A stretch of DNA of 4,832 nt, taken from the IMG/VR virus record IMGVR_UViG_3300000301_000125; one strand, 5' to 3'. Positions within the stretch are counted from its first letter, which is position 1, and the number at the start of each line of letters is the position of its first letter. Positions 1 to 4,832 of the stretch are shown piece after piece. Both the position numbers and the translations under genes were made by a program. This DNA comes from a virus. Its lineage: Duplodnaviria; Heunggongvirae; Uroviricota; Caudoviricetes. The notes under the pieces are model-generated. The model did no database searches, had not been told where the DNA came from, and worked only from the letters and a program-made list of their open reading frames with translations.

Positions 1-494
1 TGCAACATCGGATTGCTGCTGCGGTCAGAGGTTTCGGCACGCTTCACGCCGTTAAAACCGGCCATGATGAAATCAAGGGACTGGCGTTTGATAATGGCGT
101 TACGGACACGGAGCTGGAAATCCTGATAACGCGCCCACAGGTCAAGCGTTTTGTAGCGGATATAAAAATCGAAGTTAATCTGGTCGCATTCGTACTTGTT
201 TGACGCCAGCTTCGAGAAGTCCTTCGGCTGACGCTCGGTGCCACCGGCGGTGTCGGTGGTGCTGGCGATGGAGCCGGTGACACCGATGCCAATTTTTTCC
301 CCTTTCATTTCGCTGACCGGCACAATGTTGATGCGGGTCAGAAAGTCAGAGGACTCCTGCATGGTGTTCATCAGGGTCTGGGTGACCGACGGTTCAACGG
401 TGAATTTTTTCGACACATCACCGGCGTCGATGCCGTTCAGTTCGGCAACACGGGACAGGTAGGCATTAAATTTAAAGCGGGTTTCCTGGCGCAT
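1..494 (-). CDS. N: Major capsid protein, P2 gpN family (partial; N-terminal 164 codons, gene continues beyond window start)
   Basis: ATG at 494..492 on the minus strand. I translated the frame by hand down to position 3 with no stop: MRQETRFKFNAYLSRVAELNGIDAGDVSKKFTVEPSVTQTLMNTMQESSDFLTRINIVPVSEMKGEKIGIGVTGSIASTTDTAGGTERQPKDFSKLASNKYECDQINFDFYIRYKTLDLWARYQDFQLRVRNAIIKRQSLDFIMAGFNGVKRAETSDRSSNPML. I recognise this as the N-terminus of the P2-type major capsid protein. It is absent from the ORF track because there is no stop inside the window. The ribosome-binding site is hidden in the N-run starting at 500. The track ORFs 44..292(-) and 238..462(+) are other-frame artefacts of this gene. Confidence 0.9.
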   Translation of the reverse strand, partial: MRQETRFKFNAYLSRVAELNGIDAGDVSKKFTVEPSVTQTLMNTMQESSDFLTRINIVPVSEMKGEKIGIGVTGSIASTTDTAGGTERQPKDFSKLASNKYECDQINFDFYIRYKTLDLWARYQDFQLRVRNAIIKRQSLDFIMAGFNGVKRAETSDRSSNPML

Positions 495-672: not shown

Positions 673-1651
673 GGCCTTGCTGCGGCGCTGCTGGGTCAGA
701 CTTTCGGTGTGGTCGAGACTGTTTTTCAGGCGGGTGAATGCCTGGCTGGTTTCATCCGCCCTGTCAGTCACCTCCTGCTTAAGTGCGGAAAAGGCGGTTT
801 CCACCTCAGCGAGGCGNNNNNNNNNNNNNNNNNNNNNNNNNNNNNNNNNNNNNNNNNNNNNNNNNNNNNNNNNNNNNNNNNNNNNNNNNNNNNNNNNNNN
901 NNNNNNNNNNNGTGGCGCTCAGTTTTTCCTGCACATGTTCAGCAACAGCGGTCACCGCTTCATGCACGTCATTCAGACGGGCGTCATCGCTGGCCTGTTT
1001 GCGGCCAAAAATGGATTTCACCTTTTCGGTCAGGGCGGTGAACACGGTTTCAGGCAGGTCTTCAAATTCCAGCTCAACGGGCGTTGCCACTGAAATCAGG
1101 TTTTCAGGGCTTAATTTGAAGCGGTTCAGGGGGTTGTGTTTTGCCGTGCGGCAGAATTCCAGGTATTCCGTNNNNNNNNNNNNNNNNNNNNNNNNNNNNN
1201 NNNNNNNNNNNNNNNNNNNNNNNNNNNNNNNNNNNNNNNNNNNNNNNNNNNNNNNNNNNNNNNNNNNNNNNNNNNNNNNNNNNNNNNNNNNNNNNNNNNN
1301 NNNNNNNNNNNNNNNNNNNNNNNNNNNNNNNNNNNNNNNNNNNNNNNNNNNNNNNNNNNNNNNNNNNNNNNNNNNNNNNNNNNNNNNNNNNNNNNNNNNN
1401 NNNNNNNNNNNNNNNNNNNNNNNNNNNNNGTCGTCAATCTTTTCCGCCTTCAGTTCGGCCACATCGCCATAACGCTTAAAAATACCGTCAGGCAGGATGC
1501 CGCGCAGATGTTCCAGGTTAATGCGGCAACCATAGACACGCGGGTCAAAGGTTTCGGCCATTTCCTGAATATCCTGCGCACTGATGACACGCCCGTCACA
1601 GGTGTCACCCTCAACGCCGATACGAAAGAATTTTGAGACTTTTTTTGCCAT
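673..1651 (-). CDS. O: Capsid scaffolding protein / prohead serine protease, P2 gpO family (interrupted by two N-runs; 3' end and stop lie in the N-run 500-672)
   Basis: ATG at 1651..1649 on the minus strand gives MAKKVSKFFRIGVEGDTCDGRVISAQDIQEMAETFDPRVYGCRINLEHLRGILPDGIFKRYGDVAELKAEKIDD (1651..1430). After N-run 1172-1429 the same frame continues TEYLEFCRTAKHNPLNRFKLSPENLISVATPVELEFEDLPETVFTALTEKVKSIFGRKQASDDARLNDVHEAVTAVAEHVQEKLSA(T) (1171..912). After N-run 817-911 the protein continues in a different frame as RLAEVETAFSALKQEVTDRADETSQAFTRLKNSLDHTESLTQQRRSKA (816..673). Possible AGGA ribosome-binding site 9 nt upstream of the ATG. I recognise the protein as P2 gpO-like. The track ORF 472..804(-) is the C-terminal part of this gene; its leading M is an internal GTG (Val) codon and its tail NYAPGNPL is an out-of-frame read of the N start region. 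Confidence 0.85.
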
Positions 1652-1824
1652 TGTCAGGAGTCCTGAATAGTGATTAGAGGAGTCACATGTCGGCATCAGT
1701 TTCCCGACGATGCGCATCCTCCGCCATCAGTCCCGGATGGCTTATCACTGACACAACAGCACCTTAGCGAATCGCGGGGCGCGACTCAGTAGCCTTGCCG
1801 TGTATTCATCACGGCGAGGTATTC
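1652..1824. promoter_or_regulatory. Divergent intergenic control region between O (leftward) and P (rightward); expected site of activator-dependent late promoters
   Basis: 173 bp non-coding spacer between two divergently oriented start codons (O ATG 1651 on minus, P ATG 1825 on plus). In P2-family phages the equivalent interval carries the divergent late promoters activated by the Ogr/Delta zinc-finger activator. No strong sigma70 -35/-10 pair is evident, as expected for activator-dependent promoters. Contains a perfect palindrome TCAGGA-G-TCCTGA (1654-1666), ACATGT (1685-1690) and a partial TGG-N12-ACA dyad (1738-1755). Exact promoter positions are not determinable from sequence alone. Confidence 0.4.
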
Positions 1825-3747
1825 ATGACCATCACCACAGACACCACTCTTTTACACGACCCNNNNNNNNNNNNNNNNNNNNNNNNNNNNNNNNNNNNNN
1901 NNNNNNNNNNNNNNNNNNNNNNNNNNNNNNNNNNNNNNNNNCGTCAGGCGGCGCTGCTGTACTGGCAGGGGTTTTCCGTGCCGCAGATTGCCGCCATGTT
2001 GCAGATGAAACGCCCGACGGTGCAGAGCTGGAAACAGCGCGACGGCTGGGACAGCGTTGCCCCCATCAGCCGTGTCGAAATGAGTCTGGAAGCGCGGCTG
2101 ACCCAGCTCATCATCAAACCGCAGAAAACCGGCGGTGACTTCAAGGAAATTGACCTGCTGGGACGCCAGATTGAACGACTGGCACGGGTCAACCGTTACA
2201 GCCAGACCGGCAACGAGGCAGACCTTAATCCGAACGTCGCTAACCGCAACAAAGGCGGGCGGCGCAAACCGAAAAAGAATTTTTTCAGTGACGAGGCCAT
2301 CGAAAAGCTGGAGCAGATTTTCTTTGAGCAGTCTTTCGAATATCAGTTGCACTGGTATCGCGCCGGGCTTGAGCACCGCATCCGCGATATCCTGAAATCC
2401 CGCCAGATTGGCGCAACGTTTTATTTTTCCCGCGAGGCGCTGCTGCGCGCCCTGAAAACCGGTCATAACCAGATTTTTCTGTCGGCCAGTAAAACGCAGG
2501 CGTATGTGTTCCGCGAATACATCATCGCCTTTGCCCGTCTGGTTGACGTTGACCTGACCGGTGACCCGATTGTCCTGGGCAATAACGGCGCAAAACTGAT
2601 TTTTCTCGGCACCAACTCCAACACCGCACAGAGCCATAACGGCGACCTGTACGTCGACGAGATTTTCTGGATCCCGAATTTTCAGGTACTGCGTAAGGTG
2701 GCATCAGGTATGGCCTCACAGAGTCACCTGCGCTCGACCTATTTCTCCACCCCGTCCACGCTGGCGCACGACGCCTACCCGTTCTGGTCTGGTGAGCTGT
2801 TTAACCGGGGACGCGCCAGCGCCGCTGAACGCGTGGAAATCGACGTCAGTNNNNNNNNNNNNNNNNNNNNNNNNNNNNNNNNNNNNNNNNNNNNNNNNNN
2901 NNNNNNNNNNNNNNNNNNNNNNNNNNNNNNNNNNNNNNNNNNNNNNNNNNNNNNNGCGGACGGTCAGTGGCGGCAGATTGTCACCATTGAGGACGCGCTG
3001 AAAGGCGGCTGCACGCTGTTCGACATTGAGCAGCTCAAACGTGAAAACAGCGCCGACGATTTTAAAAACCTGTTCATGTGTGAATTTGTTGACGACAAGG
3101 CATCGGTGTTCCCGTTCGAGGAGCTGCAACGCTGCATGGTCGACACGCTGGAAGAATGGGAAGACTATGCGCCGTTTGCTGCCAATCCGTTCGGCTCCCG
3201 CCCGGTATGGATTGGTTACGACCCGTCACACCGTGGCGACAGCGCCGGATGTGTGGTACTGGCACCGCCGGTGGTGGCCGGTGGCAAATTCAGAATACTT
3301 GAGCGTCACCAGTGGAAAGGCATGGACTTTGCCACTCAGGCGGAATCCATCCGCAAACTCACCGAAAAATACAACGTCGAATACATCGGTATTGATGCCA
3401 CCGGCCTCGGTGTCGGCGTGTTCCAGCTCGTGCGCTCGTTCTATCCCGCCGCGCGCGACATCCGCTACACGCCGGAAATGAAAACCGCAATGGTGCTCAA
3501 GGCAAAAGACGTTATCCGCCGTGGCTGTCTGGAATATGACGTCAGCGCCACCGACATCACCAGCTCGTTTATGGCTATCCGCAAGACCATGACCAGCAGC
3601 GGACGCAGCGCCACCTATGAGGCCAGCCGCAGCGAGGAAGCCAGCCACGCCGACCTCGCCTGGGCGACCATGCACGCCCTGTTAAATGAGCCACTCACCG
3701 CCGGTATCAGCACCCCGCTGACATCCACCATTCTGGAGTTTTACTGA
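1825..3747 (+). CDS. P: Terminase large subunit (ATPase/nuclease), P2 gpP family; interrupted by two in-frame N-runs
   Basis: ATG at 1825 preceded by GAGG (1816-1819) with a 5-nt spacer. Single frame through both N-runs (1863-1941, 2851-2955) to TGA at 3745-3747. N-terminus MTITTDTTLLHD, C-terminus ...ISTPLTSTILEFY. Walker A-like LSASKT (2479-2496) and Walker B-like LYVDE (2647-2661) in the N-terminal half. Asp-containing motifs WIGYDPS and IGIDATGLG in the C-terminal half, as expected for a terminase nuclease domain. I recognise the protein as P2 gpP-like. The track start at 1795 is a TTG with no ribosome-binding site, so I prefer 1825. Confidence 0.9.
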   Translation: MTITTDTTLLHDXXXXXXXXXXXXXXXXXXXXXXXXXXXRQAALLYWQGFSVPQIAAMLQMKRPTVQSWKQRDGWDSVAPISRVEMSLEARLTQLIIKPQKTGGDFKEIDLLGRQIERLARVNRYSQTGNEADLNPNVANRNKGGRRKPKKNFFSDEAIEKLEQIFFEQSFEYQLHWYRAGLEHRIRDILKSRQIGATFYFSREALLRALKTGHNQIFLSASKTQAYVFREYIIAFARLVDVDLTGDPIVLGNNGAKLIFLGTNSNTAQSHNGDLYVDEIFWIPNFQVLRKVASGMASQSHLRSTYFSTPSTLAHDAYPFWSGELFNRGRASAAERVEIDVSXXXXXXXXXXXXXXXXXXXXXXXXXXXXXXXXXXXADGQWRQIVTIEDALKGGCTLFDIEQLKRENSADDFKNLFMCEFVDDKASVFPFEELQRCMVDTLEEWEDYAPFAANPFGSRPVWIGYDPSHRGDSAGCVVLAPPVVAGGKFRILERHQWKGMDFATQAESIRKLTEKYNVEYIGIDATGLGVGVFQLVRSFYPAARDIRYTPEMKTAMVLKAKDVIRRGCLEYDVSATDITSSFMAIRKTMTSSGRSATYEASRSEEASHADLAWATMHALLNEPLTAGISTPLTSTILEFY

Positions 3748-4832
3748 TGAGCAAGAAAAAAGGGAAAACACCGCGACCAGCGGCAAAAACAACGACCGCC
3801 AGCGCCCCGAAAATGGAAGCATTCACCTTTGGTGAGCCGGTGCCGGTACTCGATCGCCGTGACATTCTGGATTACGTCGAGTGCATCAGTAACGGCAGAT
3901 GGTATGAGCCACCGGTCAGCTTTACCGGTCTGGCAAAAAGCCTGCGTGCCGCCGTGCATCACAGCTCCCCGATTTACGTCAAACGCAATATTCTGGCCTC
4001 GACATTTATCCCGCATCCGTGGCTTTCCCAGCAGGATTTCAGCCGCTTTGTGCTGGATTTTCTGGTGTTCGGTAATGCGTTTCTGGAAAAGCGTTACAGC
4101 ACCACCGGTAAGGTCATCAGACTGGAAACCTCACCGGCAAAATATACCCGCCGTGGTGTGGAAGAAGATATTTACTGGTGGGTGCCGTCCTTCAACGAGC
4201 CGACACCTTTCGCGCCCGGCTCCGTGTTTCACCTGCTGGAGCCGGATATTAATCAGGAGCTGTACGGTCTGCCGGAATATCTCAGCGCCCTTAATTCTGC
4301 CTGGCTGAATGAGTCGGCCACGCTGTTTCGCCGCAAGTATTACGAAAATGGCGCACATGCCGGATACATCATGTACGTTACCGATGCCGTGCAGGATCGC
4401 AACGATATCGAAATGCTTCGCGAAAACATGGTGAAGTCAAAAGGCCGCAACAACTTTAAAAACCTGTTTCTCTATGCCCCACAGGGGAAAGCCGACGGCA
4501 TTAAAATTATCCCGCTCAGTGAAGTGGCAACGAAGGACGATTTTTTTAATATCAAGAAAGCCAGCNNNNNNNNNNNNNNNNNNNNNNNNNNNNNNNNNNN
4601 NNNNNNNNNNNNNNNNNNNNNNNNNNNNNNNNNNNNNNCGCTGACCTGCTGGACGCACACCGCATCCCCTTTCAGTTGATGGGCGGCAAGCCGGAGAACG
4701 TCGGGTCGCTGGGTGATATTGAGAAAGTGGCAAAGGTCTTTGTCCGCAATGAGCTTATCCCGCTACAGGACAGGATCCGCGAGATAAACGGCTGGCTCGG
4801 TCAGGAGGTCATTCGCTTTAAAAACTACTCAC
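3747..4832 (+). CDS. Q: Portal (capsid vertex) protein, P2 gpQ family (partial; continues beyond window end; frame changes across N-run 4566-4638)
   Basis: ATG at 3747-3749 overlaps the P stop codon (TGATG). GGAG at 3735-3738 with an 8-nt spacer. Frame 0 is open from 3747 to 4565 (MSKKKGKTPRPAAKTTT...KDDFFNIKKAS, 273 codons). After the N-run, a different frame starting at 4640 is open to the window end: ADLLDAHRIPFQLMGGKPENVGSLGDIEKVAKVFVRNELIPLQDRIREINGWLGQEVIRFKNYS. The track tail LTCWTHTASPFS with a stop at 4677-4679 is the wrong frame. I recognise the protein as P2 gpQ-like. Confidence 0.85.

Follow-up and report, generated by a model that had tools for sequence, protein, structure and literature searches.

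The late region of phage P2 (Peduovirus P2, NC_001895) is a well-known pair of operons, in which genes N and O are read from the minus strand and genes P and Q from the plus strand, divergently from a common promoter region. The DNA analysed here, a stretch of 4832 nt referred to below as the window, carries the same region (N', O, P and Q') interrupted by six runs of N. Runs of this kind are familiar from draft and metagenome assemblies, where contigs are linked by read pairs and each scaffold gap is filled with Ns to an estimated length. A sequence-only reading of the window had offered two explanations for what it took to be breaks in the frames of O and Q at two of the runs: either the runs differ in length from the sequence they hide, which it favoured, or both genes carry real frameshifts and the window comes from a decaying prophage. 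Comparison with P2 and its relatives leads us to hold, with high confidence, that the genes are intact and that the frame breaks are artefacts of N-runs of the wrong length.

Gene content and divergence from P2

Over its visible bases the window is 98.2% identical to P2 (megablast), and several Peduovirus genomes match it at 98.4% by the same method. The top match among 5,426 complete E. coli genomes reached 98.6% identity, and none of these genomes was 99% or more identical to the window over its whole length; likewise, no phage record was 99% or more identical over the longest visible segment. Gene order and orientation, as judged from the ungapped collinear alignment and the P2 annotation, are those of P2, with N and O on the minus strand and P and Q on the plus strand. 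Together with the protein families and the nucleotide identity, this places the window in a P2-type (Peduovirus) late-gene cluster, and the underlying biology is that of the P2 late operon pair, with nothing new.

The left end of the window (nt 1–494, minus strand) holds the 5' part of gene N, which encodes the major capsid protein (Pfam Phage_cap_P2, E = 7e-64) and is 98.6% identical in nucleotides to the annotated P2 gene; the window start cuts the gene, leaving codons 1–164, which run from nt 494 down to nt 3. Gene O, the scaffold/protease gene, is also on the minus strand and is seen in three pieces. The N-terminal piece (nt 1430–1651; start codon 1651–1649) specifies gpO residues 1–74 and matches Phage_GPO (E = 8e-54). 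The middle piece (nt 912–1171), which also falls within Phage_GPO, covers residues 136–221 plus two bases of codon 222, and its ungapped identity to P2 is 98.8%. The C-terminal piece (nt 673–816), identified by translation, covers residues 225–272 (RLAE..RRSKA) at 97.9% ungapped identity to P2 O. On the plus strand, gene P (nt 1825–3747) codes for the terminase large subunit (Terminase_5, Terminase_6N and Terminase_6C), and its stop codon (nt 3745–3747) overlaps the start of Q in the motif ATGA, as in P2. Gene Q (nt 3747–4832, plus strand), the portal protein gene, is cut by the window end after 338 of its 344 codons. The matches to Phage_cap_P2, Phage_GPO and the three terminase families all pass the Pfam cut-offs; the truncated Q piece scored 31.8 bits against Phage_portal (E = 1e-7), which is under the gathering score of 39.1 bits, and is 97.8% identical to P2 Q at the nucleotide level.

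The divergent late-promoter region pO/pP lies at nt 1652–1824, as placed by the P2 annotation, and the 173 nt between the start codons of O and P show zero differences from P2. Landmarks transferred from that annotation put the activator-binding site at about nt 1731–1761 and the transcription starts at about nt 1691 for the O operon and nt 1802 for the P operon. No strong sigma-70 consensus site was found in the pO/pP region; late promoters that depend on an activator are not expected to carry one. A scan of nt 1600–1862 for promoters and terminators returned no terminator and a single weak sigma-70-like site, which lies within the start region of O; there was no Rfam match within the window.

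The visible sequence (4049 nt) differs from P2 at 72 positions, all of them point differences, with no indel. In the coding sequence, 63 of the differences are synonymous and nine non-synonymous, and no internal stop occurs in O, P, Q or N'. This is the signature of strong purifying selection and not of decay, and it bears out the view of the sequence-only reading that such intact and conserved protein sequence favours an artefact of length. When the P2 bases are substituted for the Ns, O (284 aa), P (590 aa, with both of its N-runs given their true lengths) and Q (the 338 codons seen) are open throughout, differing from the P2 proteins by one, one and five amino acids, respectively. Given these translations, O, P and Q are almost certainly intact underneath the N-runs.

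The densest cluster of differences from P2 is found at the 5' end of Q (nt 3775–3818; five in 50 nt) and includes the replacements Q10R, M16T and G20A. The exact 53-mer that carries these five window-specific differences (nt 3770–3822) had no match in the genome, viral and metagenome contig collections.

Length of the N-runs and reading frame

The seven visible segments of the window align to P2 in order and end to end, with no gaps (blastn), so the distance between the flanks of each N-run can be read directly from the P2 genome. The six runs measure 173, 95, 258, 79, 105 and 73 nt, while the corresponding P2 intervals are 92, 7, 183, 4, 30 and 2 nt. Each run is thus too long, by 81, 88, 75, 75, 75 and 71 nt in order, a total of 465 nt. 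The same figure is obtained from the ends of the alignments: the 4832 nt of the window span 4367 nt of P2, and the same holds for every top match in 1479 E. coli and 72 phage records. A regression of run length on true length gave a slope of 0.99 and an intercept of 78 nt (r = 0.996), with a mean overshoot of 77.5 nt (sd 6.1).

A survey of relatives extends this comparison well beyond P2. It covered 230 loci in all, 80 of them P2-like loci from species-representative genomes and about 150 of them viral contigs, and the flank-to-flank distance was measured only where alignments reached the segment ends, which left 97–132 relatives per site. The distances at the five coding sites (7, 183, 4, 30 and 2 nt) were invariant among the relatives measured, and equally so in genera that are only 70–85% identical at the nucleotide level (blastn); the intergenic O–N site varied from 88 to 93 nt. 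None of the retrieved loci contained an N-run. Variable-gap pattern scans found no contig with 80–110 nt between the O flanks in the viral and metagenome collections, and none with 60–90 nt between the Q flanks in the viral collection. As positive controls, the same flanks with a short gap returned at least 120 contigs for O, with 7 nt in all matches listed, and 36 contigs for Q, all with 2 nt.

The frame is lost at two of the runs. In O, translation of both flanks in all frames showed that the codons of ..EKLSA end at nt 914 and that RLAE.. starts at nt 816 in a different frame, just as the sequence-only reading had it. On the minus strand, the highest codon coordinate is 1 mod 3 for ..HVQEKLSA and 0 mod 3 for RLAEVETAF.., and the intervening nt 817–913 amount to 97 nt (95 N and the visible AC), or 1 mod 3. 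All 132 relatives measured have 7 nt between these flanks, and the P2 bases hidden by the run (nt 817–911) are the third base of the Thr222 codon and the codons for Glu223 and Gln224 (..EKLSA-TEQ-RLAE..). In Q, on the plus strand, ..FFNIKKAS ends at nt 4565 and the sole open frame beyond the run starts at nt 4640 (ADLLDAHRIPF..), again as had been described; the intervening nt 4566–4639 amount to 74 nt, or 2 mod 3. Here all 97 relatives measured have flanks 2 nt apart, and the P2 bases hidden by the run (nt 4566–4638) are the first two of the Ala274 codon, the third being the visible C at nt 4639 (..KKAS-A-ADLL..). The alignment of the flanks to P2, which had been proposed as the check, therefore returns both genes to a single frame. 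The apparent frameshift in O arises from an overshoot of 88 nt and that in Q from one of 71 nt, and the idea that N-run lengths are not true hidden lengths is upheld at both sites.

At the three remaining coding runs the protein-like frame continues unchanged past the Ns, as the sequence-only reading stated. The run at nt 1172–1429 (258 N) corresponds to 183 nt in 128 of 128 relatives, that is, 61 codons for gpO residues 75–135. Within P, the run at nt 1863–1941 (79 N) corresponds to 4 nt in 127 of 127 relatives, and the run at nt 2851–2955 (105 N) to 30 nt in 126 of 126, or ten codons, which in P2 read HNALAGGLLC. A frame that is kept is nevertheless no sign of a faithful length: each of these runs is exactly 75 nt too long, and the frame survives because 75 is a multiple of three, equivalent to 25 phantom codons in each case. 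If run length is unrelated to codon phase, the chance that a given run retains the frame is 1/3; the probability of three or more retentions among five runs is then 0.21, and that of five among five 0.004. Chance alone would thus give such a mixture, with some frames kept and others broken, and the mixture carries no biological signal.

A sixth run (nt 500–672, 173 N) had not been listed by the sequence-only reading. Under it lie the last 12 codons and the stop of O, the spacer between O and N, and the N ribosome-binding site, so that no frame comparison is possible across it; the distance between its flanks in relatives is 88–93 nt, mostly 92 nt.

Some relatives gave matches to P that were about 700 nt longer. 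A link between these and the N-runs was considered and rejected, as the additional length is an extra downstream gene and not an insertion at an N-run site. The gene, of about 248 codons, lies between P and Q and overlaps both, and was seen in some ten P2-like prophages (e.g., locus L007, nt 5270–6016, plus strand; also L042, L052, L053, L056, L057, L058, L072, L074 and L082) whose hosts are Citrobacter, Serratia, Pectobacterium, Buttiauxella, Yersinia and Ca. Symbiopectobacterium; neither P2 nor the window carries this gene. The encoded protein is 32–37% identical to gpP residues ~125–371, with Terminase_6N (the ATPase domain) as the sole Pfam match, and has neither an N-terminal HTH nor a nuclease domain. 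The survey also included Firmicute and Bacteroidota records with P2-like late genes of enterobacterial type, namely Vagococcus sp. WN89Y (L014) and Chryseobacterium sp. 18061 (L034), with gpP proteins 87% and 82% identical to the query, respectively. This suggests that the two assemblies are contaminated or mislabelled.

Origin of the excess length and rival explanations

The N-runs of the window have the properties of placeholders: in all relatives the flanks are collinear and lie side by side or nearly so, and the run lengths differ from the length really missing, as judged by homology only. The hidden bases of the source presumably have the same lengths as those of the relatives, which are no closer than ~98.7% overall. 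The window would then be a scaffold-like copy of the late region of a P2-type phage or prophage (Peduovirus), in which six short stretches have been replaced by N placeholders, and the coordinates beyond each run would be shifted by an amount unrelated to codon phase. An excess that is not a multiple of three (88 in O, 71 in Q) would make the frame seem broken, and an excess of 75 would make it seem held. What the window displays at these sites is a data artefact, not a biological feature.

As to how the overshoot came about, the terms 'gap estimates or padding' in the sequence-only reading are correct insofar as the lengths are wrong, but the lengths are not arbitrary, since they follow the true gap with a slope of 0.99 and a roughly constant excess of about 78 nt. 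A fixed filler (e.g., 100 N) was rejected, as the runs differ in length and track the true gap; tracking combined with a steady overshoot fits a biased estimate of gap size better. The cause is most likely a paired-read gap estimate with a systematic bias, made for a low-coverage short-read scaffold, the contigs of which would measure at least 499, 144, 260, 433, 909, 1610 and at least 194 nt. Granted that the run lengths are wrong and the genes intact, an origin of the overshoot in the assembler is probable. That three of the six excesses are exactly 75 is tidier than is usual for noisy paired-read estimates, and hints at a deterministic step; the recurrence of 75 may stem from the read length, the size of the k-mer or some rule for padding.

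The same tidiness would suit runs added later and on purpose, as masks or filler introduced by the preparer of the record or of the window, each having the length of the hidden stretch plus a pad of about 75 N. The genes would be intact under this reading also, and only the origin of the overshoot would differ. One collection is described as having stretches masked as runs of N, and the absence of the 53-mer from three contig collections points the same way. The other excesses (71, 81 and 88), however, leave no single pad, and a constant pad of 75 combined with real indels in the source was rejected at the Q site, where the 2 nt hidden leave no room for the 4-nt deletion that would bring 75 down to 71. 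In addition, masking base for base would have preserved the coordinates, and the hidden stretches (2–183 nt) sit at no recognisable features, as random gaps in coverage would. Deliberate masking is accordingly a rather unlikely source of the overshoot. A different use of base-for-base masking, with the Ns covering real sequence, would require six insertions of 71–88 nt in N/O, O, P and Q, for instance copies of an unknown miniature mobile element with phage late genes as its target; formally, one short element present in six copies would account for six excesses that are all close to 75 nt. Yet none of the 97–132 relatives measured has an insertion at any N-run site, the top matches all share the span of 4367 nt, and the pattern scans found no contig with the spacing required at O (viral and metagenome) or at Q (viral). 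Inserts of 88 and 71 nt would also destroy two essential genes that are otherwise under strong purifying selection, and the masks would needlessly extend over ordinary, unique P2 sequence as well (183 and 92 nt). We consider this reading hardly credible.

Real frameshifts in O and Q, situated within the hidden stretches of a decaying prophage, were the alternative put forward by the sequence-only reading. The frames do break by window coordinates, and a truly decayed relative exists, in which gene P changes frame (Ca. Symbiopectobacterium, L082). This alternative fails against the visible sequence described above, with its lack of indels and stops and its excess of synonymous changes. Moreover, one small indel would have had to land among the 7 nt hidden in O and a second among the 2 nt hidden in Q, the chance of which is about 1.6e-5 if they fall at random, and the frame-keeping runs are 75 nt too long as well, so that run length is unreliable everywhere. 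Decay of O and Q is very improbable. A programmed ribosomal frameshift was also considered for the two sites and rejected, as O and Q are single continuous frames across them in P2 and all relatives.

Comparison with known systems

With the N-run lengths taken as wrong and the genes as intact, the runs in the window are unusable for arithmetic of frame or length, and the caution includes those that keep the frame, which still add 25 phantom codons. Taken literally, the runs would yield false frameshifts in O and Q, and false insertions of 25 residues in O and P.

Compared with P2, the window has the same gene order, orientation, ATGA overlap and promoter region, and differs by the 72 mostly synonymous point changes and the N-runs, and by nothing else. 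The prophage of Ca. Symbiopectobacterium sp. 'North America' (L082, nt 3501–5244) provides an example of a truly decaying copy, in which gene P, between residues 76 and 80 and in readable sequence, passes from frame 3 into frame 1. It shares with the window an apparent frame change in a conserved late gene, but in the window such changes occur only at N-runs, and no defect is seen in the readable sequence. The closer parallel is with the scaffold gaps of estimated length found in draft and metagenome assemblies. As in these, short contigs (144–1610 nt) follow one another in the right order, each correctly oriented, and the length of each N-run follows the real gap without equalling it; the window differs from them in that the error is a near-constant +78 nt, three times exactly +75, instead of a scatter around zero.
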